41,831 nt of DNA from a virus (lineage: Duplodnaviria; Caudoviricetes), in IMG/VR virus record IMGVR_UViG_3300007764_000117, positions 1 through 41,831 of that record; one strand, given 5' to 3'. A program made the translations under genes and the position numbers. A model generated the notes under the pieces. It saw nothing but the letters and a program-made list of their open reading frames with translations. It did no database searches and was not told where the DNA came from. Shown piece by piece: positions 3,335 to 41,831 of this stretch (position 1 is the first letter of the stretch; the number at the start of each line of letters is the position of its first letter).

Positions 3335-4096
3335 ATGAACTTTATAATCTTGCGGGACGGGACTAAGCTCAGCTTCCAGTATGACGGAAGGAGGTACCGG
3401 ACTGTCGGACACGATTCCGGGTGCCTGGCGGGGAACATGGCGGCAAGTCTGTCCCGGATTCCGAGGTTCACAGGCCATACGAGGGTTGGAATCAGCGTGG
3501 CCGAGCACTCTATCGGCGTAGCGAGACTGCTTCAGCTCCACGGGTCCGACGTAGAGACACAGTTCCTCGGATTGATCCACGAGGCGGGAGAGATGGTAAC
3601 GGGTGACATCCCCACGCCGGTGAAAAACATTAACCCGGGGATACGAGAATTCGAGAGGGACATCTACATCGACCTGGAGCGGGAGCTGTGTCCGTTCGGA
3701 CATTTTCGGCCGGCGAGCCGCGAGCTGGTGAAGCAGGCAGACCTACTGGCCCTTCACGCCGAAGCCCAGAGATTTATGGCTGGCTTCAGCCTGGATGCGT
3801 ACGGCGGGGAGCCGAGCTTCCTGTCCGAGTGGGGGTTGCAGGAGGACTATCTGAGGAAGCTGGAAATCCTCTACCACGGCAAGGACGGGGGCGAGATGCA
3901 CCATCCCGGGCACACGGACTGGTCGGAGGCCCAGAGGTTTTTGAACTGGTACGGTGTGCTTATGGGAAGGCTCCTGCTGGAAGCCAGGGAGCGGGGGGCG
4001 TGCAGCCGTAACCTCGTTACGGCCGACTGGGCGGCGAGAAATACTGGCGTGGTTTGGGCCTTGACAAGTTTTACAAAGCGTGGTAAGCTGGCGTGA
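3335..4096 (+). CDS. HD-superfamily (YfbR/YfdR-like) deoxynucleotide phosphohydrolase
   Basis: RFTGHT, SVAEHS, LIHEAGE..TGDIPTPVK, VKQADLLAL; the HD dyad reads HE. RBS AGGAG. Confidence 0.85.
   Translation: MNFIILRDGTKLSFQYDGRRYRTVGHDSGCLAGNMAASLSRIPRFTGHTRVGISVAEHSIGVARLLQLHGSDVETQFLGLIHEAGEMVTGDIPTPVKNINPGIREFERDIYIDLERELCPFGHFRPASRELVKQADLLALHAEAQRFMAGFSLDAYGGEPSFLSEWGLQEDYLRKLEILYHGKDGGEMHHPGHTDWSEAQRFLNWYGVLMGRLLLEARERGACSRNLVTADWAARNTGVVWALTSFTKRGKLA
4061..4089 (+). promoter_or_regulatory. Sigma70-type promoter for the recombination genes
   Basis: TTGACA (4061-4066), 17-nt spacer, TGn-extended TAAGCT (4084-4089). Confidence 0.75.
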
Positions 4097-9797: not shown

Positions 9798-10235
9798 ATG
9801 GATGCAAGCGACGAAATCCGAGAATTCTCGACCGGGGCCATAAGGGACGCGGCCGATAAGAAACCCATGCTCCAGCTTATTTCGCCCTTCGCACTCATGC
9901 GGCTGGGGGAGTGGATGCGGTTTGCCTGCAAAGACCGCAAACCGGAACCCTATCCAGCGAGGAACTGGGAGAAGGGAATGCCCTTCAGTGAGGTCATAGG
10001 CTCTCTGGAGCGGCACGTCCAGAAGTGGAAAATGGGGGACAGAAGCGAAGATCATCTCGCGGCTGTTATGTTCAATACCATGGCCCTCATTCATCTCCAG
10101 GAGATGATTGACCGCGGCGTGCTCCCCCGGGAACTCGACGATATGCCCTCATACGGGCCGTCTCGACTGTGGGTGGAACGAAAGCCCGAGGACGGCTGCT
10201 ACCTGAGCGTTGCCACCCCCGCAAAGGAACTATAA
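9798..10235 (+). CDS. dATP/dGTP diphosphohydrolase-like protein (DUF5664-type)
   Basis: REFSTGAIRD..KP..L, RNWEKGMP, SLERH, EDHLAAVMFN are characteristic of this phage family. Confidence 0.8.
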   Translation: MDASDEIREFSTGAIRDAADKKPMLQLISPFALMRLGEWMRFACKDRKPEPYPARNWEKGMPFSEVIGSLERHVQKWKMGDRSEDHLAAVMFNTMALIHLQEMIDRGVLPRELDDMPSYGPSRLWVERKPEDGCYLSVATPAKEL

Positions 10236-10236
10236 G

Positions 10237-11007
10237 ATGGCCGCTGTGCATACCCTGACTCGATTCTGGCTCGGGTTTGACCGGCATGTCCCGGATGTGG
10301 ACCCGGTAGTGGACCATATCGTCCGGGATTTCCTGCGGGATTTTAAGCCCAGCATCCGGGTGGCCGGTGGTGATTGGCAGTCGGTGGATCAGGTGTCCGC
10401 CTTCGACAATGAACAGGACATCGACCTCAAGGACGAGTTCGAGCAGAATGAGCGGGCCATTGATGAGTTCGGCATTACCCACTACCTGGAGGGCAATCAC
10501 GAAGAGCGACTTCGCCGCGTTGGGACGAGGCTTGATCGCCGACTGCGGAGCATGGTTGATCTTTCCGGGAATCTTCATCTGGAGGATCGCGGCATTAAGC
10601 TCTTGCCCTATCACCCTCGTCTGGGCATTCTGAGGCTCGGTCACCTGAAGGTCCTCCACGGATTCTTTGCTACTGAGTATCTGGCGAAGAAGACAGCCGG
10701 CACGTACGGCACCTGTGCTTTTGGGCACGCCCATCGCTTCCAGGTGTTCCAGTCCAAAGAGGCGTTCGAGACCCACGTAGGATTCTCTATCGGCATGCTC
10801 GGCAGCCTGGAGCAGGCATACGTGGGCAATCGCCCCCCGATGGGCTGGAGTCAGGGCTTTGCCTTCGGGTATATTCGCCGGGATGGCTCGTTTGACCTGT
10901 ACCCGGTGCGTATCGTGGGGGGACAGGCGGTCATAAACAACATTCACTACCCTCGGCCTGTGCGTAGCAGGCGGAGAACAACCGGAAAGTCGAAGGAGAA
11001 GAAATGA
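10237..11007 (+). CDS. Calcineurin-like metallophosphoesterase
   Basis: Ordered motifs DxH (FDRHVP), GD (GGDWQSVD), GNHE, LHG, GHAH. Confidence 0.9.
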   Translation: MAAVHTLTRFWLGFDRHVPDVDPVVDHIVRDFLRDFKPSIRVAGGDWQSVDQVSAFDNEQDIDLKDEFEQNERAIDEFGITHYLEGNHEERLRRVGTRLDRRLRSMVDLSGNLHLEDRGIKLLPYHPRLGILRLGHLKVLHGFFATEYLAKKTAGTYGTCAFGHAHRFQVFQSKEAFETHVGFSIGMLGSLEQAYVGNRPPMGWSQGFAFGYIRRDGSFDLYPVRIVGGQAVINNIHYPRPVRSRRRTTGKSKEKK

Positions 11008-12956: not shown

Positions 12957-13199
12957 CTGGGGCAGGAACCTCGCTACCAGCCCTCCGCCGGCGGTCCCCC
13001 CGAACGCCGCAACCGCGATTAAAATGATCCACAGCCGCTGTCGCTCCACACGTTGACGAATTCCGTTGTGGGCCGTGAGATCACGATTGTGGGACTCCAT
13101 CTGTTGGGGGAGGATGTGTTCCAGGTAGTGGTCGAAGTAGCGTCTGACTACGAGTTCCGCGGCCTGGTCTACCTCTCTTCGCTGTTCGTTATCGAGCAT
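12948..13199 (-). CDS. Small single-TM membrane protein (possible holin or antiholin)
   Basis: C-terminal LWIILIAVAAFGG; RBS AGGAG; last gene of the late operon. Confidence 0.65.
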   Translation of the reverse strand: MLDNEQRREVDQAAELVVRRYFDHYLEHILPQQMESHNRDLTAHNGIRQRVERQRLWIILIAVAAFGGTAGGGLVARFLPQLW

Positions 13200-16100
13200 T
13201 GTACCAATCTCCTGTCAGACGCGAAACTGGCTTCGGCATGTTGGCTCGCCTGGGCCGCACAGGACGGCCGATGGGGTGGGTGATGCTGTCTGTGATCTTC
13301 TGATAGTTCTCCTCAGCGGTCTTTGCCATGATCCTGTTGGCTGGCGAGAGACCGCCAAGAAACTCCGCCTGGTTCTTCCGAGGCACTGATATGGGGCTAC
13401 GTGACTCCAGGGAGGCCCGGAGACGCAACCTAGCTTCCTCGGCCGAAAGACCCTCGGACTTAGCCCAGCTCTTGTAGGCATCCAAGCGTTCCAGGAGGGC
13501 CGGTTTGTCCGAGTCCCTGACGGCCTCGAAGATCACGAGGTAGTGGAAGTTCTTCGGCCCCATGCCGGGCTCCGGCTTTCTGCCCAACTTCTCGTTGAAG
13601 ACCCTGGACAGTTTGCGGGTCTGGTAGTAATCCTCCCGCGTCGGGTACGTGGCCCTCGCCCACCACCCTCTCGCAGCCTTCCAGACGGGAGTGTATCGCA
13701 CGCCAAGGGATTCCAGGCGGCGAGAGAACGGTGTGCCGTCGTACTGGTTCAGCCCCAGCAAAGCCATGCCCACCTCAGTCGTAACGGCGAGGGGGAAGAT
13801 GAGGTTAGCGGGGACCCGGTACAGATCGCCACGAGAATATCGTGCTGCCTCGAACATACGATAGAACGGACCGAAGATTCCGCCCTCAGCCATGGACTCG
13901 GCCAGAAGGCCCGTCCAGCTCTCGGGATCGTCCGGGTCGATCAGGGGCCGTCCCGAAGCAGCTCGGCGAGCGTACCGCTGCAAGAACCCGGAGCCTGCTA
14001 CCGAGGCCACAAAGGCCAGAAGCCTCCAGCCGGAATTCGCCAGACGCTCGGCCGCGGCAACCCGGGCCTCCCGGGTTCGAGCATGCGTCATACTGCGAAC
14101 ATCCTCGGCCACGTCCCCCGTGTGCCGCACGGCACCCCGGGCCACGGAGTTAGTGACCGACAGGAACCGGAAGAGGAATTTTCCTACGGGGTGATTCTGT
14201 ACGGCTCCCTTGCGATGGCGGGCCTCCGGAAGACCTGATATGGTATTGACGCTGTTCTGGAGCACTTTGGCCCGGGTAGCCTCCGTCATAGACCCGCTCG
14301 CGATCTCATACACCTGGCTATCCGTCAGCCTGAGATGTCTCTTCAGGAAACGAGCGTCGGCCGGTGTCATCCGCCTATTCTGATTGAGCTTCTGTACCCA
14401 CAGATCGTACGTTCTGGCCACTATGAACTGGGACCTGCGTTCAGAGAACGCCCCAAGAGTCATAAGGGCTTGTGGGATATCTTTCACGAATACATCATGG
14501 AACCAGGTATCCCGGTGGATGGTCCAGTCCCTATGGGAGTCGATAACGGCTCCCAGGGCTTCATACTCTGCCGAAAACTTTCTTGGGTTGGTGAGAATCG
14601 TCACGAGCGAATTGCCATAGCCCCGCAGGAAACCGCGAAACCCGACAGCCGGGGCCGTACGGATGGGGTTGAAGATATCCCAGATCGGAGCAAGGCTGAG
14701 GACACCGGCGGTGACGGACCGGTCAATAGCTGTTGCCAGTTCGGCAAGACGGCTATCGCCCAGGTCCACCAGGTAATTCTCCATCACTCCCCCCAGGTTC
14801 ACACGCTGGTAGTTCGACAGCATGCGGTTGAACAGCCGCTCGTCCCTACCCGGGCGGGTAGAGCCGCGAGCTACGTCGCTGCGTAGATTGTCGATCAGGC
14901 CGTCCACGTCATTCACGCCCGGCGGAGTGCGGGGCGTGCGGTACACGATTTCGCCGCTGTCCTCGTCGAACGTGCCATACCGCGGCAGGAGCATCCGTTG
15001 GGCCGTATCCCACAGGGCTATTCTCCTGGACTGGGATTCCAAGGCCAACATAAAGTGGGCCCTGGGGTCCCGTGTAAGGAGGTTCACCCAGCGATCACCC
15101 ACACGAAGGGAGACGGGAAGATCATCGAACACCCGGACGTACTCCAGAGAACCGGCCTTCTTCGTGGCACCCGATCTACGCAGGCCAGAAAGCTGCCGTC
15201 GCAGCTCGATTGCATCGGTAGAAAGACCCGGGTTTCGATCAGGGTGCTCGATCAGCCATGCGATGAGGGCGTCCCATACCGGGCCCCGTTGGTAGCGAAG
15301 GGCCTCCTGCCCATCCCTGGTGTAGGACCGGAAGTACTTCCCACTTTGGGCCCGTTTAAACCTTCTGGCGGCGAAGCTGGTACTGCCATCTTCATTCCGC
15401 TTGCGTGCCAACTGCGGGAGTCCAGCATCCTCGGCCGCTTTGCCTGTCACCTCTTGCATGTTGAGATATGCCGCGGCGACGGGCTGTATCTCGGGCGGTA
15501 CCGACGCCCTATCAAGCCTCTCCGGATGTTCCAGGAGGGTCTTCCAGTTCGTATCACCGTCGTCCTGAAGACTGTTCATCCAGGCCAGGACTTTGTGCCG
15601 GGTGGCGGTGTTCATGTCAGCCAACGCATCATCAAACTGCTGGAGCAACCTGCCCCTCATAAGCCGATGTCGAGCTTCGGCCTCGTCGATGAGGGATACT
15701 GCGAACTCTCCCGTTTTTGTCCTCTGGAGCGGCCCGCTCTCATCCAGGATGAGGGCCTGAACGCCTCCGGAAAGAACTGCACCCTCCTCGGCCGCCCCCT
15801 GGAGGCCGCCCGTTATGACCCGGCCGAAGCCGTCTACGTCCAGGGCCCCGCTCTCGTCCGATAGCAGGGATTTCACGCCGCCCCACAAAATCCCCTGCTT
15901 CTCCGCGTCCACGACGATCTCGTTACTGGGGGGTAGATTTCCCAGGGCCGGCTTATCCAACAGCTCTTGGCCCACAGCATAGATGTCCTGGGCGAACGCC
16001 CGATGTACTTCTGGCTTCTCGTGGAACGACTTCTCGACGCGGTTCTCGTCGATGTCCGTTTCCAGTTTGGCCTGGGTAACATCGGCCAGTTCCGTCCCGC

Positions 16101-19100
16101 TGTATACGGCCAGGTTGTAGACATTCACGTGCGATATCACATCAGCATTACGCCGGAGATAGGTAAGCGTACGTCCGTAGCTCTCGGGTGTTTCCTGGGG
16201 CAGCCCGATGATGACATTCGGAATGAGGGAGATGCCAGATTCCCTGAGCTTCTCAGTGGCCGAGTCGATGATGGCCGTTGTGGCCGGCTTATGCTGCTTC
16301 TTCAAGATGTCGTCGTTGTAGGACTCGACGCCCAGTTCCACGAACCGGACACCGGCTTGCTTCAAGAAGTCCGCGTCCAGTTTCTTCATCTGTGCGGCCG
16401 TGGTCTGGATAATAAAGCCGCTGAAATTCGGGTTTTGTGCCTTGAGAACGTCGTACGCCTTGGCCAGGTCTGTGTAGTTGGATGCCTGGCCGAAGGTTTT
16501 ATCGTTCACATACACCAGCGTATAGTCGAGATCGGAGAACGACTTGAGCTGTCGCTTTACGTCGGCCGGAGGAAGGATACACAGATTCTTCGGGACGACG
16601 CAGAAAGCACACTTGTGGAGACATCCCTCCGACAGTGTGAGCCGGGGTTGAACGGCCGTTCCCGCGAAGTGCCGATAGTCGGTCCCCTTCGCAAACTTCC
16701 TTCCGGACTGATCCTTCACAAACTCCGCGAGGGTATCGTACGCCACGACGTTCGGAAGGCCCGCGAACTCCGTATTGAAGTCCACATACCCGCCAACGGA
16801 TATCGGCCCGGCATACCCCTCCGCGACTCTACGCACCAGGCTCTTGTTCACGTCGAGGACGCTAAATGCTACCTGCCCATAGCCGGCCTCGTTCATAAAT
16901 CGTACAGCTTCATCCACGTCTCGTACCACGTACAAGTCCGTGTTGGGGAGGTTGTAGGCGGCCTGGCCGATCCACTGGGGCAGTTCCCAGAAATCATCGG
17001 CTCGCACGTAGCCGCGTCTTTTCGCGTACAGGGCATCCGAATACTGGTCCTGGGCGGACCCCCTACTCTCCGTCTGGAGGAGATCGAACGACCACTGCAC
17101 CAGCAGCACCCGTTTCGAGTTGGACTTGTCTCGGGTCTGGCGGACCCACACATTGCGATTCGGCCGGTCCAGAGTCTTAGAGCCCTCCTCATATGTAGCG
17201 AAGGGGGCTGTGGTCGCCGATCCCGGGGCGTCCTTGGCGACACGAGAAGCTCGCTTGGATGCTTCCTGTGCGGCCCTCTTTGACAGAGTGGTGGTTGTCT
17301 GAAGGGATGTTGCAAGTTTCGTGGGTGACACGGCCTTCTCGGTGGGCACCTGCTCGGCAGGAACCGTATCCGCAGGTGCCGCATCCTCTACTGTAACCGG
17401 AGTAGGGTCCCCGCTCCGCATGGTGGCCGCCTGGAAGGTCGGAGGGCGTTCAAGGCCCTCTCGGGAAAGAGTCGGCACCGCCTCTGCCGTAGCCTCGTCC
17501 ATGGAGGACTCGGCCGACTGCAAGAGTCTGTCGAATGATTCTTCCGTCCCAGCCAGCTTCGTAGAGGCACCCCAGACCAGGCCCGGGAGGATCGACCCAC
17601 TCGGCCCCTCTACCGGCTCCAGACCAGCATCACGGAGACCAGCCTGAAAGTCCGACTTGATCCGGGCTACGACATCGGCCGAGTCTCCTTCGGTCCTCCC
17701 TGCGAGGAGTACAAGGGCCTGATCGCCCTCGACCGATGACTGGTCCAGGTTCCACTTAAACCGCCTGGCCGTACTGCGGCGGACGTTGGACTCGACGGCC
17801 TTCTGGAAGATTCCCCGGACCCTACCTGCCACCTCGCGGCCAGCGGGACTATGCTCGGCGAAGGGTTCCAGATCGGCAACAGCCAGGCGGACCACGGCCA
17901 CGGGCCTCCCGGTTCGTTCACTCGATCTGAACATCCGCTTTGTGTCTACATCCGAGAATACTGGTCGCTCAGCGGCCGTCTGAGCCCTCTTCCCCGCTTT
18001 GGCGGGTTCTGACCCCCTTTCGGTCTGTTCGTTTAGTCCTGAGCGACCCTGGGCCTCGTCCATCCGTCTCTGGGCGTACTCCAACTGGGCCCGTATCTGG
18101 CTCGGGGTGGCGTTGGCTGGCAGGTCCTCCAGTATCAGGCCGAGTTCAGCCTCAGATATACGCTCCTTCGCCCGGATGAACTCGCTCGGACTCATATCCG
18201 CCGGCAGGGACTGTGCCTGCTCCTGGAGCCGGCGGCGTACATCCTCTGGGCGGGTTCCCCGGGTGAGGACATCCGCTTGATCGAGGAGGTCTGTCGCCCG
18301 CCCGTTCAGAGCGGGGTCCAGCGTATGTCCCGGCCCGGCCAACTGCGGGGGCGTATTGGTCTCTCCGGGCTCGAACGTGGCGGCCCCGGCCAGACCGCCC
18401 ACAACGGCACCGGCCAAGCCTTCCATGATCGCCCCTTTGATAGCCTCCCAGTCGATGTCGTGAAGGTCAAGGCCCTGTGCAATAGCCGCCTGAGTCATGG
18501 CCTGGCTGAACTCGGTCCCACCCTCGGTGAGGGAGGTAATCGCGGCCTTTGCCAGGCGTCCGAAGGTATCGGGCGAATTCTTGGAGAGGAGTTCAAACGG
18601 ACCCACCCGCTCCAGAACACCGGATACGACGCCGTACGTAATGGCTCCCCCGGCGGCAACCTGGCTCGCGTCTCTCGGGTCCATGCCCTGTTTGGAAGCG
18701 AACTCCATGTACTGATCGTACGCTTGCGGGGTCTCCACCGCGAACATGTTGGCCGCTACGGCCGTAGACCCCAGGAACCGGCTCACCAGGCCCTGACGTA
18801 CGGCAGAGCCGGCTCCAGCGGTGACCGCGAACTGGGGGACTTGCTCGCCTATGATAGAGTAGATATTGAATCCCTCGGGCAGATACGGGATGTTCTCCTT
18901 CTTGTTGAAGCCGGCGAAGATATCCTGCACCTGCTCGGACCGCAACAGCTCCGCTTGTCGCTTTGCTCGGTAGGGGTTGCTGGTGGAGACTTCAGCCCCA
19001 AGGTCTGACCCATGGATGGCATCGTGAACGGCTTCGCCGATCATGGTTCCGATACGCTTCGGTCCGGTCTGGATGCGGTAGGTCCCGGTAGCCAGACCGC

Positions 19101-19713
19101 CGGCCAGGGACTTCAGTTCCGTCCACACCGGTACGTACTGGTTTTCCCACTTACCGTCCTTGAAAACCAGCGGCGGCAGTCGGCCCGCCCCCGGGGGCTG
19201 GAAGCCGTGGGCGGCGAGCACCCGATGCATGGCACCCATAGCTTCCTGGGTAGACGCATCGGGATATAGTTCTCGGTGCTGTTGCCATACCGCGTTTGCT
19301 ATCTCGGTCCGCCTTCTAAGATACTCACCCACTGCCCGATTGGGGGCCTCTGTAGTCTCCCACTCACTGAGCTTACGCCGCCGCACAGCTTCTCTGGTGG
19401 CGAAGTCCGTATCCTTCAGTAGGGTAGCCGTGGCCACCTCCAGCGGCATGTTACGCAGCTCGGGACGTTGGGAGCGATACGCCTTGGCGAGATCATCCCA
19501 GTAGGATACGAGGAAACGGGAAGAAGCCTCCGAGTCCTTACGAAGCTCCTCGGTACGTTTTGCCAACGAGTCCATCCGTCGAACGAAGGCCGCCTGCCGG
19601 GTATCCTCGCTATCGAGGACAAAACCCGACGGAAGATCGGGCGGGTCCTCCAGACGGAATCCCGGGGGCAATCCTGGTATGCTCTGGGGTGCTTGGCTCA
19701 CAGGGGCTCCCAC
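13189..19713 (-). CDS. Giant ejection/internal virion polyvalent protein with degenerate GGDEF-like and cobalamin-binding-like radical SAM domains
   Basis: Third of three genes after the tail fibre; N-terminal LPPGFRLE/LPSGFVLD; CLHKCAFC (CxxxCxxC, 16600-16623), VELGVESY, IIGLPQET, YSGT; GGDEF-fold-like segment ~17490-17940. Confidence 0.85.
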   Translation of the reverse strand: MGAPVSQAPQSIPGLPPGFRLEDPPDLPSGFVLDSEDTRQAAFVRRMDSLAKRTEELRKDSEASSRFLVSYWDDLAKAYRSQRPELRNMPLEVATATLLKDTDFATREAVRRRKLSEWETTEAPNRAVGEYLRRRTEIANAVWQQHRELYPDASTQEAMGAMHRVLAAHGFQPPGAGRLPPLVFKDGKWENQYVPVWTELKSLAGGLATGTYRIQTGPKRIGTMIGEAVHDAIHGSDLGAEVSTSNPYRAKRQAELLRSEQVQDIFAGFNKKENIPYLPEGFNIYSIIGEQVPQFAVTAGAGSAVRQGLVSRFLGSTAVAANMFAVETPQAYDQYMEFASKQGMDPRDASQVAAGGAITYGVVSGVLERVGPFELLSKNSPDTFGRLAKAAITSLTEGGTEFSQAMTQAAIAQGLDLHDIDWEAIKGAIMEGLAGAVVGGLAGAATFEPGETNTPPQLAGPGHTLDPALNGRATDLLDQADVLTRGTRPEDVRRRLQEQAQSLPADMSPSEFIRAKERISEAELGLILEDLPANATPSQIRAQLEYAQRRMDEAQGRSGLNEQTERGSEPAKAGKRAQTAAERPVFSDVDTKRMFRSSERTGRPVAVVRLAVADLEPFAEHSPAGREVAGRVRGIFQKAVESNVRRSTARRFKWNLDQSSVEGDQALVLLAGRTEGDSADVVARIKSDFQAGLRDAGLEPVEGPSGSILPGLVWGASTKLAGTEESFDRLLQSAESSMDEATAEAVPTLSREGLERPPTFQAATMRSGDPTPVTVEDAAPADTVPAEQVPTEKAVSPTKLATSLQTTTTLSKRAAQEASKRASRVAKDAPGSATTAPFATYEEGSKTLDRPNRNVWVRQTRDKSNSKRVLLVQWSFDLLQTESRGSAQDQYSDALYAKRRGYVRADDFWELPQWIGQAAYNLPNTDLYVVRDVDEAVRFMNEAGYGQVAFSVLDVNKSLVRRVAEGYAGPISVGGYVDFNTEFAGLPNVVAYDTLAEFVKDQSGRKFAKGTDYRHFAGTAVQPRLTLSEGCLHKCAFCVVPKNLCILPPADVKRQLKSFSDLDYTLVYVNDKTFGQASNYTDLAKAYDVLKAQNPNFSGFIIQTTAAQMKKLDADFLKQAGVRFVELGVESYNDDILKKQHKPATTAIIDSATEKLRESGISLIPNVIIGLPQETPESYGRTLTYLRRNADVISHVNVYNLAVYSGTELADVTQAKLETDIDENRVEKSFHEKPEVHRAFAQDIYAVGQELLDKPALGNLPPSNEIVVDAEKQGILWGGVKSLLSDESGALDVDGFGRVITGGLQGAAEEGAVLSGGVQALILDESGPLQRTKTGEFAVSLIDEAEARHRLMRGRLLQQFDDALADMNTATRHKVLAWMNSLQDDGDTNWKTLLEHPERLDRASVPPEIQPVAAAYLNMQEVTGKAAEDAGLPQLARKRNEDGSTSFAARRFKRAQSGKYFRSYTRDGQEALRYQRGPVWDALIAWLIEHPDRNPGLSTDAIELRRQLSGLRRSGATKKAGSLEYVRVFDDLPVSLRVGDRWVNLLTRDPRAHFMLALESQSRRIALWDTAQRMLLPRYGTFDEDSGEIVYRTPRTPPGVNDVDGLIDNLRSDVARGSTRPGRDERLFNRMLSNYQRVNLGGVMENYLVDLGDSRLAELATAIDRSVTAGVLSLAPIWDIFNPIRTAPAVGFRGFLRGYGNSLVTILTNPRKFSAEYEALGAVIDSHRDWTIHRDTWFHDVFVKDIPQALMTLGAFSERRSQFIVARTYDLWVQKLNQNRRMTPADARFLKRHLRLTDSQVYEIASGSMTEATRAKVLQNSVNTISGLPEARHRKGAVQNHPVGKFLFRFLSVTNSVARGAVRHTGDVAEDVRSMTHARTREARVAAAERLANSGWRLLAFVASVAGSGFLQRYARRAASGRPLIDPDDPESWTGLLAESMAEGGIFGPFYRMFEAARYSRGDLYRVPANLIFPLAVTTEVGMALLGLNQYDGTPFSRRLESLGVRYTPVWKAARGWWARATYPTREDYYQTRKLSRVFNEKLGRKPEPGMGPKNFHYLVIFEAVRDSDKPALLERLDAYKSWAKSEGLSAEEARLRLRASLESRSPISVPRKNQAEFLGGLSPANRIMAKTAEENYQKITDSITHPIGRPVRPRRANMPKPVSRLTGDWYNAR

Positions 19714-20492
19714 TTTCCGTTGCGGCGAATGAGCCGCTGACCTTGCGGCCCAACCGCCACCTTGCCCTCATACGGATCGGACGAGGGTGCGGCCGAGCCA
19801 TCAGCGAATGGGTCAATCGTGCCGGCCTTGTACCCGGCTACGATAGTCTTTTCCTTCTCGTTGAGCTGTTGCAGCCCGCTCGTTACCTCATCCAGTCTTG
19901 CTCGGAACTGTTCCTCGGAACCGAATCGCTCGGACAGATTCGGGGCCCCCCGCCACTTCTCCAGCTCGTCGAGTTGCTCCTGGAGTTGTCTGCGTTTGTC
20001 CTGGATCGGCCGGCGAAGAAGGTTCAATTCCTGGGCCGGAGTGACCCTCCGGGGCTCGTTGGTACGCGGCATGATTGCTTCCCGCACCAACGTATCATTC
20101 CCGCTAAGAAGCCCCAGACGGGCCTTCTCGTACGCAGCCGGGTCGATCTCACCCGAGGCCAGGAGGCGATCCAGATGTTCCTGTTGCTGTTGAAGGCCCT
20201 GCTGTTGCAGAGCATTCTGGCTCAGGAGTCTCTGCATGGCCGGAGACATCGCCGGCTGTCCGGATATCCCTCGCGAGGACGTAGCAGAGGCCCTCCTGGA
20301 GGCCAGAGCATTCTGGAGCCGGAAGGCACGCTCCTCGGCCTCCCTGGCTGCCTGCTGGGCCCTGTCTCCCTGGATAAGACCGAGGAGCTGCTGCACACGT
20401 TGCTCCTTCGTGAGCGTACCTTGGGCCAAGCCGGCAACGCGGGCCAGCTCCAATCCAGCAGTTATCGGGCTATATCGTAGCTCTATCGGCAT
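19698..20492 (-). CDS. Putative ejection (internal virion) protein
   Basis: Gln/Ala-rich coiled coil; C-terminal KVAVGPQGQRLIRRNGKWEPL; synteny. Confidence 0.65.
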   Translation of the reverse strand: MPIELRYSPITAGLELARVAGLAQGTLTKEQRVQQLLGLIQGDRAQQAAREAEERAFRLQNALASRRASATSSRGISGQPAMSPAMQRLLSQNALQQQGLQQQQEHLDRLLASGEIDPAAYEKARLGLLSGNDTLVREAIMPRTNEPRRVTPAQELNLLRRPIQDKRRQLQEQLDELEKWRGAPNLSERFGSEEQFRARLDEVTSGLQQLNEKEKTIVAGYKAGTIDPFADGSAAPSSDPYEGKVAVGPQGQRLIRRNGKWEPL

Positions 20493-20502
20493 GGTTCCAT
20501 CC

Positions 20503-21594
20503 CTACTCGATCCCGAGGTTGGATCGGAGCTGATTATACATCCCCTGCGACACGGCTCCGCCCCTCGGCAGACTTTTGTTGCCGTTCTTCTTCATCCACG
20601 CGACGTACTCTTCATACGGCAGCGTGAGCGGATTGAACGCGGCGGCACTCCCCCCTCCAGCCATCTGCTTCGCCATACTGAGAATGTTGGCCTCCGACTC
20701 CGAGGGCTGCCCCTCGCCACCATACCCGATCTTCGAGGCCGCGGCGGTGTCGAGGAGCTGTGACATCTCGGGAGAAGAAGTGGCCTCGGGTACCGAAATG
20801 GGCTCGGTTGCGGCTGGTCCCGCGGAGACGGTGCCGTGCTCCCCGAGGAAGACGGTGCCGCCACCCTGCATAAAGGAAGCCGGACTGGGGCTCGACGGTA
20901 CAGCCCCGCTGCCATGGGCCACGGCTCCCGGGCCGGTAACACCGGCCAAAAGCCCGGAAAAATCGGGCGTGGCAACGCCACCCAGGGACTCTCCCTGCGA
21001 GGGGGGAAGACCGGCAGACGCCTCGGATTCGGCCTGCCAGCGGCTGAGGACACCGCCGCCCGGCATTGTAGAGGGAAGTCGAACGGTAGACTTCTCCGCG
21101 GCCTTTTCAGACGCCGCCGCGGACTGGATCAGGGCGGCGAATTGTCCGAGGTCGGGGCCGGTGTCCCGCCGGCTGCTAAGGATACCGGCCTTCATCTGTC
21201 CTAGTGCAAGCTGGATGTTCGCGAGGTTTCCCAGGGCCGAAGCCTTCTGAGCTGCCAGGCCCTCTTCGGCCGATTGCAGGGCCTTCTCTTCCTCGGCGGC
21301 TATTCCGCGTCTGGTGGTCTCGCGTATGGTGGTGTTCCCGAGGCCCCTGCTCGTCAGGTCCTGTTCGGAAGACGCCCTGGCCCGAGCGGCCTGTTCCCCG
21401 ATCCGAGCACGGGCCGTCTCTCCCAGTTTGTCCAAGTGCGACATGATCTGTCCGTAGGTCCCCGCCATGCCCACCTGCTTCCGTAGCTTGCCCACCGTTT
21501 CCAGCAGCTTCTGATAACGCTTGGCGTTGGCTGCGTTGGCCTTCGCCTGCTCGGCGGCGATCTGCTTCTGTATGGCGGCGTAGTCAACCGGCAT
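20503..21594 (-). CDS. Putative ejection (DNA pilot-like) protein
   Basis: Ala/Gln/Gly-rich helices, QDLTSRGLGNTT motif, low-complexity C-terminal half; synteny. Confidence 0.65.
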   Translation of the reverse strand: MPVDYAAIQKQIAAEQAKANAANAKRYQKLLETVGKLRKQVGMAGTYGQIMSHLDKLGETARARIGEQAARARASSEQDLTSRGLGNTTIRETTRRGIAAEEEKALQSAEEGLAAQKASALGNLANIQLALGQMKAGILSSRRDTGPDLGQFAALIQSAAASEKAAEKSTVRLPSTMPGGGVLSRWQAESEASAGLPPSQGESLGGVATPDFSGLLAGVTGPGAVAHGSGAVPSSPSPASFMQGGGTVFLGEHGTVSAGPAATEPISVPEATSSPEMSQLLDTAAASKIGYGGEGQPSESEANILSMAKQMAGGGSAAAFNPLTLPYEEYVAWMKKNGNKSLPRGGAVSQGMYNQLRSNLGIE

Positions 21595-29853: not shown

Positions 29854-30987
29854 TTATTGGAACAGCCTTTTGAGGCCATCGCTGACCCGCTGCTCCAGTT
29901 CATGTCTGGTGTCAGAAGAGGACTTCCCATTCTTGCCGGTATGCGTGGGGCGGAGGGAAACACCGGAAGCCCGCTTCTTCGCGGAGGCCCGAACTTCCTT
30001 CCTCGCCGCCTGCATATTGAACTCCCCGGCCACGACATCGTGACCGGCCCGGAGGGCCTCCTCCACTGAGATAAGTTCCACGGCCGGGTTCTGGCCGTGT
30101 TGGGCCTGGTTGCCAGTCAAGAGTGCGTCGGCCAGCTCAAGGACCTTGTTGCGAGTGGCGACTTGCTCTTCCGTTGGGCTATCCGTCCCATAGAACTCGG
30201 CGTAGCCCGACATCTCGGACGAGCCGAAAAACCCGTCGATCTGACGGACCAGTGCCTCCCGTTCCGACTTCTCCGCCGCCCGCATGCCCGACTCCACAGC
30301 CGGCATGACATCATTCAGCCGGCCGATGACTGCGTTGATGGGCTCGATCAGCTTGGAGATGACTTCCGAGTTCCCGAACTCCTCCACGAGGTCCTCGGGG
30401 TCGATAAGCTCCATGTGGGAGAAGGGGGACGCCGGTGACTTTCCCTCAGACTCCTTCTGGGGGCTGTCAGACTTCTTCCCCACCTCGGCCTTGATCTTCC
30501 GACCGAGATCGGCGAAACGAGAGATTTCAGCCACCCGATCCTGATGAAGACGGGCGGCGATCTGGAGAAAGGCATCCGGACTCCGACGGTAATGCCCGTC
30601 GATCTCATCGTCCGTCCACCCCTTCGACTTCAGTGACCGCCGATAGGCCGCGGGAAGGGTAGGCGGCTCGTCGCCGGCTGCTTCCTCGCCCTCGCCGTCC
30701 ACAGGGTCTGCGGACTTGTTCTCGGGTTCGCCGGAGTCATCATCCGCGGGTTCCCCGGGATCATCGTCCACAGGGTCCACGGACTTGTTCTCAGGCTCCC
30801 CGGGATCATCGTCCACGGGTTCCCCGGGATCGTCGTCCACGGGTTCGCCGGGGTCACCCCCGTCGTACTCCAGGTTGAACTTACGGAGACGCTCTTCGGT
30901 AGAAGCTTCGAGCTTCTCCCTACCGGTTTCGACCGATTCGTCGTCCGCGTGGTCCTCATCGAGGGACACATTCTCTTGGAGGGTCAT
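29854..30987 (-). CDS. Capsid scaffolding protein
   Basis: Acidic repeat-rich N-terminus, helical body, basic C-terminus; start 30987 after AAGGA; precedes the capsid gene. Confidence 0.75.
   Translation of the reverse strand: MTLQENVSLDEDHADDESVETGREKLEASTEERLRKFNLEYDGGDPGEPVDDDPGEPVDDDPGEPENKSVDPVDDDPGEPADDDSGEPENKSADPVDGEGEEAAGDEPPTLPAAYRRSLKSKGWTDDEIDGHYRRSPDAFLQIAARLHQDRVAEISRFADLGRKIKAEVGKKSDSPQKESEGKSPASPFSHMELIDPEDLVEEFGNSEVISKLIEPINAVIGRLNDVMPAVESGMRAAEKSEREALVRQIDGFFGSSEMSGYAEFYGTDSPTEEQVATRNKVLELADALLTGNQAQHGQNPAVELISVEEALRAGHDVVAGEFNMQAARKEVRASAKKRASGVSLRPTHTGKNGKSSSDTRHELEQRVSDGLKRLFQ
30697..30855 (-). repeat. Nested coding repeats in the scaffold (DDDPGEPV units; 21-aa duplication)
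   Basis: PGEPVDDD repeated; PGEPVDDDPGEPENKSVDPVD versus PGEPADDDSGEPENKSADPVD. Confidence 0.85.
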
Positions 30988-31042
30988 ACTCTTTCCTTTC
31001 TCGGCAAACTGCCCGCGAGAGCGGGGGTAGGATGCCATTCTC

Positions 31043-35938: not shown

Positions 35939-36295
35939 TCACGACTTGACGATGAATCCCTGTATGATGCACGAGTTCTTGTCCGACCCACCGCCGGCGA
36001 ACTTGGGAACAACACCGAGCGGACACCGGTAGGGCGAACTGAACGACATCACCACAGTGTCCTTCGCGTCCAGATTCCCGGCGAAAATGTACTTCCCCGC
36101 GGCGGCGGCATCGGCCACCAGGAAGATGTCTCCCCCGCTCTCCGAGGTAATCATCACGTCGGTGACATAGATGGCCTCGTCGTCCGCGAGCGTCCTGGTG
36201 TCCGTCTCTCCGTCATCGAAGATGGACAGGGCAGTGAGGGTGGAGGCATCGCCATCGACGATCCTCTCCCCATGGATGGGGTCACCTCGAAGCAT
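35939..36295 (-). CDS. Hypothetical (probable virion beta-sandwich) protein
   Basis: RBS GGAGG; beta-rich, acidic. Confidence 0.65.
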   Translation of the reverse strand: MLRGDPIHGERIVDGDASTLTALSIFDDGETDTRTLADDEAIYVTDVMITSESGGDIFLVADAAAAGKYIFAGNLDAKDTVVMSFSSPYRCPLGVVPKFAGGGSDKNSCIIQGFIVKS

Positions 36296-36947
36296 TGCGA
36301 ACCTCCTTTTCCAGGAGGGCGGCGAGCCTGTCCCCGGGCTCCAAGAGGCCCGAGGAGGGCACGGGAACCGGCCCCCACCCCCGGAACCCCACGAGGACGC
36401 CGACGACGGCCCCGTACTGGTCGGTCACCGGACCTCCGGACATGCCAGGAAAAGTCCCGCCATTGTATTCGACATAGCCGTTGATATTCAGGCAGGAAAT
36501 CCAGCCGTGCATCTCCGCCAGGTATCTCTTACTACCCGTTTGCCCGGGGAACCCCCAAGCGGTGACGCTCTGTCCCCGGTATACATCTCCGATTCGCAGA
36601 AGCCTCACCTTGTACTTCGCCCGGTGCCGCAGCAGGGCGAGGTCGTGGTCGCCCGAGATGGCCACCACTTCCGACAGCGTATCGTTCACGAGGGGCTGGC
36701 TCAGCACCATTTCGGCGACGTGCCTGGCGGTGGCAACATACGCCCAGTCGTCCTTCTGAGCGACGTAGAAACCGGTTCCGAGGTAGGGGCTATTGACCGT
36801 GCCGACGGAGACCACACAGTCATCCGGGTGCCTGGCCGTGTAGGCCGCCCTTCCCCGATCCATGTTGGGGAGCCCCACGCTGCAAACCAACAGTCCGAAG
36901 ATCGCCACGATAGACATCACAACCATCAAAACGGCGGATCGAGTCAT
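36282..36947 (-). CDS. Trypsin-like serine protease with N-terminal signal/TM segment
   Basis: GTGFYV, catalytic His TARHV, Asp DLALL, Ser PGMSGGPV. Confidence 0.9.
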   Translation of the reverse strand: MTRSAVLMVVMSIVAIFGLLVCSVGLPNMDRGRAAYTARHPDDCVVSVGTVNSPYLGTGFYVAQKDDWAYVATARHVAEMVLSQPLVNDTLSEVVAISGDHDLALLRHRAKYKVRLLRIGDVYRGQSVTAWGFPGQTGSKRYLAEMHGWISCLNINGYVEYNGGTFPGMSGGPVTDQYGAVVGVLVGFRGWGPVPVPSSGLLEPGDRLAALLEKEVRNASR

Positions 36948-36963
36948 CTCATTTCTCCCTGGA

Positions 36964-37422
36964 TCAGGACAGCAGGATCAATCGGATCGTCGCGTCGCCC
37001 TGGCCATCGGCCTCGTCTCGGAGGGCCGTAATCTGAACCACTGCATCGTAGTCGGTACCGTCCACGAGGGCGGAGCCGTCGATTCGGCTGGCCGTGTCGT
37101 GGCCCGCCATGTCATCGTGCGTGAGAAGGTGCCATATCCCGCCCTGAATCTTCATCAGGACGTATTCATCGGCGTCCGTCAGAAACTCCAGGAACACGTC
37201 GGCGTCCGAGTACACCAGGGCCGCTTCGTACGTGTCGGTCCCCCCATCCTGGGCCCACAGAACCTCAGACCCATAATCATCCTCCACGATGGCCGTCACG
37301 TCGTACTTCAGGCCATTCGTGATGGAGACTTCCTTTGGAGTGCTGATATCCCCCAGGTAGAGCGTCTCTCCAGCAGCACCGTTGAAAATGATACGCTGGA
37401 TGAACTGGAGCGTGTAGCTCAT
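36964..37422 (-). CDS. Hypothetical acidic protein
   Basis: Coupled to the GNAT stop (ATGA); in operon. Confidence 0.65.
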   Translation of the reverse strand: MSYTLQFIQRIIFNGAAGETLYLGDISTPKEVSITNGLKYDVTAIVEDDYGSEVLWAQDGGTDTYEAALVYSDADVFLEFLTDADEYVLMKIQGGIWHLLTHDDMAGHDTASRIDGSALVDGTDYDAVVQITALRDEADGQGDATIRLILLS

Positions 37423-37844
37423 TTCTTCGCCTCGTTCAGAAGGTTAACCCACTTCGAGGAGCGGGACTGTTTCGTTGCACGGAATCCGCTGTTCAGAAAC
37501 ATCCGAACCGAGGGCATGTTGTCCGCCGCCGCGTATGTCCGCACTCGCTTCCGCAGGCCGTTTACACGACGAAACGCCCGCACCAGAGATCGGACCATTC
37601 TGGCCCCGAGCCCCCGGCCGCGGTAGTTCTCATCCACTGCCACCCGCTCGATGAATCCATTTCGTTCGATGATGTTGGCGAACCCGATCAACCTGAAGTC
37701 CACGCCATCTCCATCGAGTGCCAGGATCATTCGTCCGCTCAGCGTGCCGGGCTCATCGTCCGGGAAGCACTTCGCCTCCAGGGCCCGAATCTCCGGCATC
37801 ATGCTTCGTCTGTCGGTTTCCTTCATCTGGCGAACGTAGATCAC
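37419..37844 (-). CDS. GNAT-family N-acetyltransferase (RimI-like)
   Basis: VAVDENYRGRGLG acetyl-CoA motif and N..S.RMFLNSGF; probable GTG start 37844. Confidence 0.85.
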   Translation of the reverse strand: MIYVRQMKETDRRSMMPEIRALEAKCFPDDEPGTLSGRMILALDGDGVDFRLIGFANIIERNGFIERVAVDENYRGRGLGARMVRSLVRAFRRVNGLRKRVRTYAAADNMPSVRMFLNSGFRATKQSRSSKWVNLLNEAKK

Positions 37845-37932
37845 CGAAGGCCCGCTCCCAGTTCCTGTCAAACGTATCTCGCGTGCAGTACCGACCGTCT
37901 CTTGGCCGCCTCTTGTCGCCCTTTCCGGCCAT
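37753..37932 (-). CDS. Small conserved phage protein (59 aa, absent from the ORF track)
   Basis: MAGKGDKRRPRDGRYCTRDTFDRNWERAFG..., a recurrent phage GKG..RP...NW..IF-type peptide; RBS AGGTGA. Confidence 0.6.
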   Translation of the reverse strand: MAGKGDKRRPRDGRYCTRDTFDRNWERAFGDLRSPDEGNRQTKHDAGDSGPGGEVLPGR

Positions 37933-37950
37933 GGATCACCTATGGGCAGA

Positions 37951-38027
37951 TGCCCGCGGGCTTCGGAAGAACTCGCCGGCCGGAGGCCCAAGTCGTAGCC
38001 AGTCCGTTCTTCCGAAGCCCGCGGGCA
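37951..38027. repeat. Perfect 22-bp inverted repeat with 33-nt spacer
   Basis: tgcccgcgggcttcggaagaac (37951-37972) / gttcttccgaagcccgcgggca (38006-38027). Confidence 0.95.
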
Positions 38028-38836: not shown

Positions 38837-39145
38837 ATGAAAACCCGCACCATGTTTTCCCTGTACGTGCCAAGGGAGCATCAGGATTCGCCCTTGGCTA
38901 GGCAAGCTGTTGTGCAATGTCTTCTACAGCGATTTGGTGGCTATACTGTAGCCAACGTGGATGGTGGCTACACAATGGCCGATGGTTCTGTTGCAATCGA
39001 ATCGGTCTGGCGTTTCGATATTGTCTGTGCTGGAACCCCAGAAGACCGAGAGTACATGCGTGTTTTGGCAAGGTCTGTCAGGTATCTCCTTCGGCAAGAA
39101 TCGGTTCTCCTGACGGCGAGAAAGCTTGAAGCTTCTTTCGTCTAA
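38837..39145 (+). CDS. Hypothetical early protein (ferredoxin-like, DUF3574-like)
   Basis: RBS GGAGGTG; FGGYT...GGY...DG...E and RQESVL pattern. Confidence 0.7.
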   Translation: MKTRTMFSLYVPREHQDSPLARQAVVQCLLQRFGGYTVANVDGGYTMADGSVAIESVWRFDIVCAGTPEDREYMRVLARSVRYLLRQESVLLTARKLEASFV

Positions 39146-39756: not shown

Positions 39757-40395
39757 ATGAAGCCAGAAGAGCACGTTCGCTATTGGTTGGATTCCTGCCC
39801 TGCCGCTGCATGGGCAGAAGGAATCACGTGGTACGATGAGGCGGCCGAATTCATCCATCGGCTATCGACCGAAACGGGCGTTCCCGACGTTGCGATTGCT
39901 GGCGTGGTTGCCGCTCTATCGCCCTCGGTCTATTGGGGGTTAAACAAGCGACAGGCCGAAGCCATGGTGCGGCAGTATGCGGATTCCGGCATGGAGCACA
40001 TCGACCTTGTGCCGACGAGCACGTACGGCGGGCAGGTAAAGAAAGCCCATCGGATTCTCGCCCTGGATTGCCCGGCGACGAATGACGTAGAGCGTATCCT
40101 CGGCCGACGTGCGTTCAAGACAAGGGCATTCTTCCGCAATCTACTCCGCCTGGCTTCGCCCGATGTGTGCGTTGATACGCACATCGTGCGGGCCCTGGGG
40201 TGGGAAGATCGGTTCACGCAATCGGCACGATGGTGCTATGATCGTCTAGCGGCAGCAATCGCTACGGTTGCGGTCGAACGTGGGATGAAGCCCTGCACGG
40301 TGCAAGCAATCGTGTGGTGCTCATACAAGCATCAGACAGAAGCATACAACGCACAAGAGCGATACGACCGCAAGCACGATATCGCCCCGTTCTGA
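39757..40395 (+). CDS. HhH-GPD DNA glycosylase-like phage protein
   Basis: WY, VAALSP...W..N, FKTRAFF..N, VCVDTHIVR (compare endonuclease III AVDTH), VQAIVW. Confidence 0.6.
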   Translation: MKPEEHVRYWLDSCPAAAWAEGITWYDEAAEFIHRLSTETGVPDVAIAGVVAALSPSVYWGLNKRQAEAMVRQYADSGMEHIDLVPTSTYGGQVKKAHRILALDCPATNDVERILGRRAFKTRAFFRNLLRLASPDVCVDTHIVRALGWEDRFTQSARWCYDRLAAAIATVAVERGMKPCTVQAIVWCSYKHQTEAYNAQERYDRKHDIAPF

Positions 40396-40660: not shown

Positions 40661-40861
40661 ATGGCGAACTATCTGACCTCCACGACCGGGCAGGACCGCC
40701 GCAGGGCCCTGGGAACCATCGGGACCGTTCCCGAGCTGGCGTGCGATGCGTGCGGGGCGAAGTACTTCAGCTCCAGGAACATCACCTGCCCGGCGTGCGG
40801 GCGGGGTGTGCTCGCCCTGAAGACCGGGCACAAGAATATCCTGCCGTTGAAGCAATCCTGA
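40661..40861 (+). CDS. Small zinc-ribbon protein
   Basis: RBS GGAG; CDAC...CPAC. Confidence 0.7.
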   Translation: MANYLTSTTGQDRRRALGTIGTVPELACDACGAKYFSSRNITCPACGRGVLALKTGHKNILPLKQS

Positions 40862-40865
40862 GGAC

Positions 40866-40911
40866 GGCGGGGGGCGGAACCGGACCGACCTTCCCCGGTG
40901 CCGCCCCCGCC
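40866..40911 (+). other. GC-rich intergenic hairpin
   Basis: ggcggggggcgg-accgg / ccggt-ccgcccccgcc; no U-tract. Confidence 0.55.
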
Positions 40912-40931
40912 TGGAGCAAAGGAACACTACC

Positions 40932-41477
40932 ATGAACCCCATGAACCTCGTCAGACCATCGGACCTGAAACCCGGAGGGTGCTATGTCGATGCGAACCTC
41001 CGGGGGGCATACTTCCGGGGGGCGAACCTCTGCGGTGCGAACTTCTGCGGTGCGGACCTCTGGTATGCGAACCTCCAGGATGCGAACCTCCAGAACGCGA
41101 ACCTCCAGGATGCGAACCTCCGGTGGACGAACCTCCGGTGGACGAACCTCTGGGGGGCGAACCTCCGGGGGGCATACCTCCGGGGGGCGAACCTCTGCGG
41201 TGCGAACCTCCAGAACGCGGACCTCCACGGGGCGAACCTCTACGGTGTGGACCTCCGGCATGCGAACCTCCAGAACGCGAACCTCCTGGGGGCGAACCTC
41301 CGGGAGGCGAACCTCTGCGGTGCGAACCTCCAGAACGCGGACCTCCACGGGGCGAACCTCTACGGTGTGGACCTCCAGAACGCGAACCTCCTGGGGGCAA
41401 ACCTCCAGCATGCGAACCTCTGGGGGGCGAACCTCCAGGGGGCGAAGCTTCCGTCAAACTTGAATCCCGGTGTTTAA
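40932..41477 (+). CDS. Pentapeptide repeat protein
   Basis: About 30 A(N/D)Lxx repeats. Confidence 0.92.
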   Translation: MNPMNLVRPSDLKPGGCYVDANLRGAYFRGANLCGANFCGADLWYANLQDANLQNANLQDANLRWTNLRWTNLWGANLRGAYLRGANLCGANLQNADLHGANLYGVDLRHANLQNANLLGANLREANLCGANLQNADLHGANLYGVDLQNANLLGANLQHANLWGANLQGAKLPSNLNPGV

Positions 41478-41501
41478 ACACATCGGCAAAGGAACATTAC
41501 C

Positions 41502-41831
41502 ATGAACCCCATCAAACCATCGGACCTGACACCCGGAGGGTGCTATGTCGATGCGAACCTCCAGGATGCGAACCTCCGGAACGCGGACCTCCGGGAGACG
41601 AACCTCCTGGGGGCGAAGCTCCGGTATGCGAACCTCTGCGGTGCGAACCTCTGCGGTGCGAACCTCCAGGATGCGAACCTCCAGAACGTGGACCTCCTGG
41701 GGGCGAACCTCCAGAACGCGGACCTTCAGAACGCGAACCTCCAGGATGCGGACCTTCAGAACGCGGACCTCCGGGGGGCATACCTCTGCGGTGCGAACCT
41801 CCGGCATGCGAACCTCCTGGAGGCGAACCTC
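41502..41831 (+). CDS. Second pentapeptide repeat protein (truncated by window end)
   Basis: MNPIKPSDLTPGGCYVDANLQDANLRNADL...; leader and N-terminus paralogous to the 40932 gene. Confidence 0.9.
   Translation, partial: MNPIKPSDLTPGGCYVDANLQDANLRNADLRETNLLGAKLRYANLCGANLCGANLQDANLQNVDLLGANLQNADLQNANLQDADLQNADLRGAYLCGANLRHANLLEANL

Follow-up and report, generated by a model that had tools for sequence, protein, structure and literature searches.

The defining feature of class I cobalamin-dependent radical S-adenosylmethionine (SAM) enzymes is an N-terminal Rossmann domain, with five strands and five helices, ahead of the barrel (PMC12931638). Phage polyvalent proteins are large, multidomain proteins with disparate enzymes (PMC5512222), and phage N4 possesses a three-gene cassette, gp50–gp51–gp52, whose layout recurs in the DNA described here (PMC13434306). 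This DNA is a stretch of 41,831 nucleotides (positions 1–41,831 of IMG/VR record IMGVR_UViG_3300007764_000117; hereafter the window), a phage genome containing one giant open reading frame (ORF), probably of the polyvalent, ejection type. A module inside this ORF, composed of a Rossmann domain and a radical SAM barrel, belongs to a genuine enzyme family that has not been described before, while the probable delivery system is a known one.

The window protein is similar to the polyvalent proteins in being large and multidomain and in combining disparate enzymes, but its payload needs a metal cluster. The main text of Iyer et al. 2017 (PMC5512222) contains none of the words 'radical', 'cobalamin', 'B12', 'Fe-S' and 'glycosylase'; the supplements and domain list of that paper may bear on novelty. 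As with N4 gp50 and with T7 gp16 and its PhiM1 counterpart, the window protein is the product of the largest gene of a three-gene cassette. It also has the gp50 order of N-terminal domain, linker, enzyme and helical C-terminal domain, with weak sequence and fold matches. The central enzyme of gp50, however, is an RNA polymerase, whereas the window protein carries the radical SAM module, and packaging of the latter is read from gene context. None of the injected phage enzymes described so far (ADP-ribosyltransferases (ARTs), RNA polymerases and DNA methylases) is known to need a complex metal cofactor. Delivery of a radical enzyme with Fe-S, and possibly B12, would add radical chemistry to the ejected toolkit and would tie infection to the host's supply of clusters and cobamides.

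A literature search, with most subscription papers outside its coverage, found no paper on the module family. The term 'radical SAM' is absent from the available text of PMC9503650, and its mentions in the available parts of PMC10853773 and PMC13434306 are unrelated to the family. A host defence system that uses radical SAM enzymes has been described (PMC13128918).

The radical SAM module and its family

The presence of an intact unit of Rossmann domain and radical SAM enzyme in the giant ORF is confirmed by the Pfam match, structure modelling and fold comparison. All motifs named in the original prediction lie where it had placed them: CLHKCAFC at aa 1031–1038, YVNDKTF at 1068–1074, FVELGVES... 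at 1124–1142, NVIIGLPQETPES at 1166–1178 and LAVYSGTEL at 1201–1209, with GQVAFSVLDVN at 946–956 and ISVGG at 971–975 on the Rossmann side. Pfam family Radical_SAM (PF04055) matches aa 1027–1184 with E 6.7e-13 and a score of 49.6 bits, well over its cut-off of 29.5. The AlphaFold model, built on a 62-row alignment (mean predicted local distance difference test (pLDDT) 94.7), comprises a Rossmann domain of five strands and five helices, then a partial TIM (triosephosphate isomerase) barrel. This Rossmann domain includes the segment that had been proposed to be cobalamin-binding-like. The module ends in helices, where stand-alone members stop too, and stand-alone homologues begin at Rossmann strand 1; the range first proposed, 15960..17110, marks a real unit that is slightly larger (Table 1).

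A fold comparison with B12 radical SAM and MiaB/RimO structures, suggested alongside the original prediction, matched both domains. AprD4, a radical diol dehydratase (6fd2), is the top Foldseek match and the best or tied-best fold (Z 22.6, 357 residues aligned, root-mean-square deviation 3.5), followed by MgmA (Z 22.4), CysS (21.1), RimO (20.3), MiaB (20.0), OxsB (19.6) and TsrM (18.5). In a wide-profile sequence search MgmA was best (E 7.4e-9), with RimO and MiaB next. The class I cobalamin enzymes compared (MgmA/QCMT 9ccb, CysS 9n1d, TokK, TsrM and OxsB) share with the module the five-strand Rossmann domain and barrel (321–356 residues aligned, Z 14.6–22.4), a Ser in strand 3, a Gly-Gly in strand 4 and the lack of a His-on motif. 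The module differs from them in its low identity (14–17%), its size of about 370–400 aa, its short linker and long aromatic insert, and the absence of GEGE. The best NCBIfam models are B12-type radical SAM families (PhpK, HpnJ, ladderane), but the module is far below all NCBIfam cut-offs and is nearly confined to phages. The module is classed as probably working like the class I cobalamin radical SAM enzymes, not as a member of them. AprD4 itself is only 16% identical (20 bits against a cut-off of 500) and binds no B12, whereas the module family keeps the B12-pocket residues; scores against AprD4 model NF033070 are 20–23.5 bits (cut-off 500).

Relatives of the module carry the database label 'MiaB', but assignment as a MiaB/RimO-type tRNA or protein methylthiotransferase was rejected: there are no auxiliary cysteines and no TRAM domain, and a test for the three-Cys second cluster found no column of the N-terminal domain with Cys above 30%. 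Defence-system membership was likewise rejected, the sole match being a weak one of the barrel to PDC-M51A. An annotated B12-binding radical SAM gene occurs in a cultured phage, Streptomyces phage SF3 (NC_028952; phrog_21079-like), where it stands by thymidylate kinase and NUDIX genes (L256:4341-6915), possibly a nucleotide-modification cluster; its stand-alone product is of another family, being 25% identical over 45% of the module, in the barrel only. Labels of the form L###, P#### and G### denote loci, proteins and records compared in the analysis.

Among proteins of 1195–3805 aa, 168 of 3325 candidates match the module; one of the 120 matches listed is the window's own, and the rest are 46–65% identical over nearly the whole module. 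In a full scan, 313 representatives reached E 1e-30 or better. Neither of these two protein searches used CxxxCxxC as a search pattern, as the locus scans did. Proteins and loci together yield 250 distinct modules, 199 in proteins of at least 1000 aa, 22 in proteins of 480–999 aa and 29 in proteins shorter than 480 aa. Arg1024, Lys1072, Lys1142 and polar barrel residues are invariant (241/241 modules), and the window copy carries the invariant residues of the family. The dN/dS ratio is 0.036, 0.07 and 0.044 in three of five pairs, the other two being saturated; by these estimates, the module is under purifying selection. In the syntenic phages L006, L014 and L015 it is 50–53% identical, above the primase (42–48%) and the nozzle (31–35%), and is the sole part of the giant protein that BLAST can align. 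Some modules (L113:10001-11632, L254:6001-7719, P0010, P0034 and P0088) have long internal insertions, which may be inteins or additional domains.

The family is nearly viral. Only 6 of 61 GTDB loci are members, and 50,697 cultured-phage records contain distant barrel-only matches but no family member; a locus search based on the nozzle gave no match. In a tree of 241 modules rooted with four cellular enzymes, most stand-alone copies are basal and fused copies derived, with some secondary stand-alone forms in the derived fused part; deep supports are modest. Host-type record labels of members include Neptuniibacter, Polyangiaceae, Aliirhizobium, Mesorhizobium, Saccharimonadales and Dehalococcoidia, although contigs of metagenome-assembled genomes may be mis-binned phages. 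The first four are aerobes, and radical SAM enzymes work in aerobes too; the anaerobic host that had been proposed for the phage therefore does not follow. Since the family is compact and has natural stand-alone versions and no named family, its chemistry can be tested without the phage.

The carrier protein and its probable delivery

The giant gene closes the virion block after two smaller genes and occupies the same position in L006, L014 and L015. Gene position and the C-terminal fold both point to the giant ejection protein that had been proposed, although the fold match is weak. The model of aa 1272–2174 has one PDB match with E below 0.001, the PhiM1 ejectosome (8vb2, E 5.6e-4); T7 (9jyy_I) and E1004 core proteins stand at ranks 2, 4, 6 and 10. 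Its BFVD matches include internal virion or core proteins and LPD proteins, with template modelling (TM) scores of 0.2–0.46. The N-terminal part of N4-type virion RNA polymerase (phrog_2206) is weakly matched by two homologues, P0004 (46% identical in the N-terminal scaffold; E 1.7e-3) and P0011 (E 3.9e-6). Homologous giant proteins also carry ART-PolyVal, LPD22/23/38, InPase, GNAT, NUDIX and histidine phosphatase domains.

The window protein holds at least two unrelated enzyme domains, the radical SAM module and a GGDEF-like domain. The GGDEF signature of the latter is not intact, a Pfam scan of it gave no match, and no homologue was found among the proteins gathered in the analysis; the degenerate domain (17434-17946, minus strand) could bind, rather than make, cyclic dinucleotides. 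The C-terminal scaffold is common to 14 of the proteins compared, 10 with the module (the window's own included) and 4 without, so that homologues of both kinds, which had been suggested as a check, do exist. In the four module-less orthologues the sequence of the central slot is ART-like or ParB-like by eye, and Pfam scans of two of the four gave no match there; these proteins appear to hold other enzymes in the same slot. The giant protein is likely a polyvalent ejection protein with a swappable payload. A search of 28 of 37 capsid-related loci for the module gave, among seven near-complete capsid-relative records, one with the full module and one with a relic (L257, G056:C1:20517-23711). 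In the relic, a single case, the start of the Rossmann fold survives, whereas the barrel is deleted and neither Gly-Gly nor the W-E motif is left.

On this gene-context evidence, the giant protein is very probably packaged and ejected, and delivery of an active radical SAM enzyme by the virion is quite probable. The weakness of the PDB match of the C-terminal part (TM score only 0.2) counts against this reading. N4 gp50 is thought to pass the 30–45 Å tail unfolded or as loose subdomains (PMC13434306), and cofactors would therefore load after entry; packaging of an enzyme already loaded with Fe-S and B12, as originally proposed, is doubtful on the same grounds. Such loading would take time and limit early action, a further point against the proposed mechanism. 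Separate translation from an internal start before the module was rejected, no excess of such starts being seen (10/78 vs 0.14).

In some large phages a second delivery route is suggested. The copies in L093, L209, L210 and P0140 have an N-terminal leader common with neighbouring genes, a pattern that 19 of 14384 ORFs show; four loci account for 12 of the 19. The leader appears similar to the 10-residue capsid-targeting sequence of T4, a likeness that also draws on PMC9026906 and PMC3012670, and may have such a function. Several genes per phage locus share the short leader in L093, L209, L210 and L243, and in three of these it stands on the radical SAM enzyme.

Cofactor, substrate and competing explanations

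In the proposed mechanism, the module would enter the host cytoplasm, probably in an unfolded state, as part of an ejection protein of the T7 gp16/N4 gp50 type. There it would acquire a [4Fe-4S] cluster and, in all likelihood, cobalamin. The loaded module would add a methyl group to an unactivated carbon, with phage DNA or a nucleotide as the most likely target, and this methylation would blunt host defence. This whole chain, an ejected B12 radical methylase acting on DNA or a nucleotide, is the favoured explanation, but it is put forward tentatively, and as a whole it is doubtful. A wider form of it is unlikely, in which uncultured phages of many unrelated kinds (podovirus-like, giant-protein and large T4-like) deliver the radical enzyme in its apo form and the host arms it with Fe-S and B12. 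The armed enzyme would then, as infection begins, install a novel carbon methylation on DNA or on a defence nucleotide, and a partner glycosylase of the OGG2-like kind would tell marked from unmarked DNA.

The case for cobalamin begins with a profile–profile comparison to 13 cellular enzymes of the B12 radical SAM type, which aligns helix 1 through strand 4 with a probability of 99.7%. Ser in strand 3 and Gly-Gly in strand 4 form the nucleotide-tail pocket of the B12 motif, and here Ser951 is kept in 240/241, Gly974 in 240/241 and Gly975 in 238/241 modules. The loss of Gly-Gly and of the W-E motif in the barrel-less relic is counted for B12 binding, five members match PF02310 weakly (best E 3.5e-5), and a cobalamin adenosyltransferase lies three genes from the Aliirhizobium member (L023). 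At the lower face, Leu953 maps to TsrM Arg69/OxsB Asn186 and Val955 to CysS Trp75, presumably the equivalent of TokK Trp76; the first position is Leu or Met in 229/241 modules and the second mostly Val. A hydrophobic lower face is a mark of radical methylases (PMC12931638). Several observations weigh on the other side. The lower-face residues were equated through two successive sequence alignments rather than by superposition on a cobalamin complex. Pfam B12-binding (PF02310) gives no match to the window's Rossmann domain, and no family member reaches its cut-off (best 24.1 against 32.1 bits). The family alignment lacks the GEGE motif that many enzymes of the cellular set have behind strand 5, and a profile of the N-terminal domain alone finds no solved B12 domain in the PDB, its one match being a response regulator (E 0.25). 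Cobalamin is not bound by AprD4 (PMC12931638), which shares the place of best fold with MgmA. The B12 involvement first proposed is supported by the near-invariant pocket but clouded by the missing GEGE and by the fold likeness to AprD4. On balance, the sequences make cobalamin binding rather probable and, given B12, radical methylation probable.

The chance that DNA or a nucleotide is the substrate appears about even from the sequence evidence. Strong conservation across very different phages (about 40–65% identity among fused copies, across loci of 34–66% GC) suggests a universal substrate; the outcome could be a DNA modification not seen before or a novel means of disarming a defence signal. 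A Dam methylase gene lies directly upstream of the module in L126 and L130. The recurrent neighbour DUF7178, an OGG2-like glycosylase/lyase (best PDB match E 0.0055), is fused in the same chain in 65/199 giant proteins, often at the far end, and lies within 3 kb of the module in 11/32 stand-alone loci; in the window it is a separate gene with a conserved Lys and Asp. Its link to the module is weakened by its occurrence, at genome level, in 9/21 near-complete module-bearing records (50 of 65 record handles searched) as against 3/7 capsid relatives (different models), and in 28 cultured-phage records that lack the module family. Capsid relatives thus have DUF7178 no less often than module-bearing records, and the link may come from both being part of early or injected cargo; an obligate partnership is not borne out, and the two are possibly not one system. 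A reverse search from the DUF7178 side, confined to proteins of up to 2000 aa, found 1. Bacterial members lie in small-molecule clusters, which points away from polymeric DNA: L023:9941-14869 (Aliirhizobium) has aldolase II, aldehyde dehydrogenase, the cobalamin adenosyltransferase and a phosphorylase nearby, L022/L024:8953-12133 (Saccharimonadales) an APH kinase and inositol monophosphatase, and the more distant L255:8428-11722 (Mesorhizobium) an agmatinase and a phosphotransferase.

These same clusters, with kinases, a phosphatase and a nucleoside phosphorylase beside the module, favour the main rival, in which the enzyme is delivered alike but is B12-independent (AprD4-like) or non-methylating (OxsB-like) and carries out a dehydration or rearrangement of a small phosphorylated compound, for example a nucleotide or a defence signal. 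NUDIX, histidine phosphatase and InPase co-domains, the short linker, the lack of GEGE and the lead of AprD4 in Foldseek, shared in the structural comparison, are in keeping with it, and the invariant Arg, Lys and polar barrel residues could bind phosphate. This reading is nevertheless fairly unlikely: the B12-pocket Ser and Gly-Gly are near-invariant and have decayed in the barrel-less relic, the B12 radical SAM profile aligns to the family there and not to AprD4 residues 70–164, and the lower face is hydrophobic, unlike that of OxsB. The position of MgmA as best wide-profile match and tied best fold, ahead of RimO and MiaB, would fit a B12 radical methylase of a conserved host protein or RNA that serves host takeover, like the co-injected ART and GNAT domains, which are common co-domains. 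Such an MgmA- or RimO-like role appears quite unlikely, as there is no TRAM domain and no auxiliary cysteine, and the identity maintained across loci of such different GC content exceeds what would be expected of an enzyme tracking host proteins.

Ejection likely unfolds the protein, whereas a chain made late would fold where Fe-S and B12 are supplied; the enzyme might therefore act in the virion-producing cell, on DNA being packaged or on virion proteins, with the fusion only placing it in the prohead. This is improbable, given that several stand-alone copies lie among apparently early-type small genes by DUF7178 and not in virion blocks, and that other payloads occupy the same slot. Small SAM-lyase-like ORFs near 8/32 stand-alone copies (5 of the 8 built the profile), one of which, in L110, matches SAM lyase family PF23780 at E 0.003, and a look-alike in the window would accord with a module that drains or poisons SAM, or holds cobamides, and so disables SAM-dependent restriction in parallel to SAM lyases. 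But the PF23780 match is below cut-off and no PDB match was found for these ORFs, so their SAM-lyase identity was set aside as a lead only. Radical SAM turnover is slow and needs a reductant, and the number of invariant residues that lie apart from the SAM motifs hints at a further substrate; SAM drainage is decidedly improbable. An assembly chimera, a chance motif or a dead relic is largely refuted and extremely improbable. The only read support for the window is a single contig of run X1 that spans 13000–20000 without a joint or difference and may be this DNA's own source, and the G056 copy shows that decay occurs; P0003, P0004 and P0005, however, are independent proteins with the same N- and C-terminal scaffold and the module at the same place, which excludes the chimera feared originally, and the module is under purifying selection with its invariant residues kept in the window. 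The sample label of run X1 is 'soil metagenome', and no RNA data set holding this DNA was listed.

Genome setting and neighbouring genes

The minus strand of the window carries terminase-like, portal, likely capsid, nozzle and fibre genes, and the plus strand a family A polymerase and a primase; the terminase call was made from sequence and position, since a family search gave no match. Family scans of the two small genes upstream of the giant ORF gave no match either, and a scan for promoters and terminators stayed at chance level. The features are listed in Table 1.

Table 1. Features of the giant ORF and associated genes in the window
Feature	Position (nt)	Strand	Remarks
Giant polyvalent ejection-type protein	13189..19713	−	2174 aa; closes the virion block and is its largest gene
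N-terminal scaffold, aa ~40–490	18244..19596	−	Three mildly hydrophobic Gly/Ala-rich segments; common to 8 other proteins, with or without module
Degenerate GGDEF-like domain, aa ~590–760, second payload	17434..17946	−	ESM Atlas features 0.96; GGDEF clusters 26/30 matches
Whole mobile module, aa ~852–1254	15952..17160	−	B12-binding-type Rossmann domain, radical SAM barrel and C-terminal helices
Rossmann domain, aa 866–1010	16684..17118	−	Long aromatic insert; Ser951 in strand 3; Gly974-Gly975 in strand 4
W-E-x-P-x-W motif, end of aromatic insert of Rossmann domain	16972-16995	−	
Radical SAM partial TIM barrel, aa ~1023–1210	16084..16647	−	Pfam PF04055 and fold matches
CxxxCxxC cluster motif, C1031/C1035/C1038	16600..16623	−	Intact in 250/250 distinct modules
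C-terminal helical scaffold, aa 1272–2174	13189..15900	−	T7 gp16/internal-virion-protein-like; model pLDDT 74.6
Small gene directly upstream	19698..20492	−	Likely smaller ejection protein (from position); homologue at same place in L014
Second small upstream gene	20503..21594	−	Likely smaller ejection protein (from position); homologue in L014
DUF7178, OGG2-like HhH (helix–hairpin–helix) DNA glycosylase/lyase	39757..40395	+	In other phages, repeatedly found next to the module or fused with it
Small DUF3574/SAM-lyase-like ORF	38837..39145	+	DUF3574 E 0.017; weak lead

The DUF3574/SAM-lyase-like ORF, in what is likely the early region, is an unexpected companion for an enzyme that uses SAM, unless they are active at separate times. 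An HD phosphohydrolase, a dATP/dGTP diphosphohydrolase and a metallophosphoesterase are encoded near the family A polymerase (3335-4096 and 9798-11007, plus strand), and a modified-nucleotide pathway is possible there, although PurZ was not found. A Z-genome or 7-deazaguanine pathway was rejected: despite the HD phosphatase, dGTP diphosphohydrolase and family A polymerase, 0 of 38 scanned ORFs match PurZ or the Que/Dpd families.

Just upstream of the terminase genes (36282-37991, minus strand) lie a trypsin-like protease, which could process the polyvalent protein, and a GNAT acetyltransferase. The capsid gene is preceded by a scaffold-like protein with acidic repeats of the EPVDDDPG type (29854-31038, minus strand), and the end of the window (40782-41831) has two tandem pentapeptide-repeat ORFs (40932-41477 and the next frame), possibly DNA mimics.

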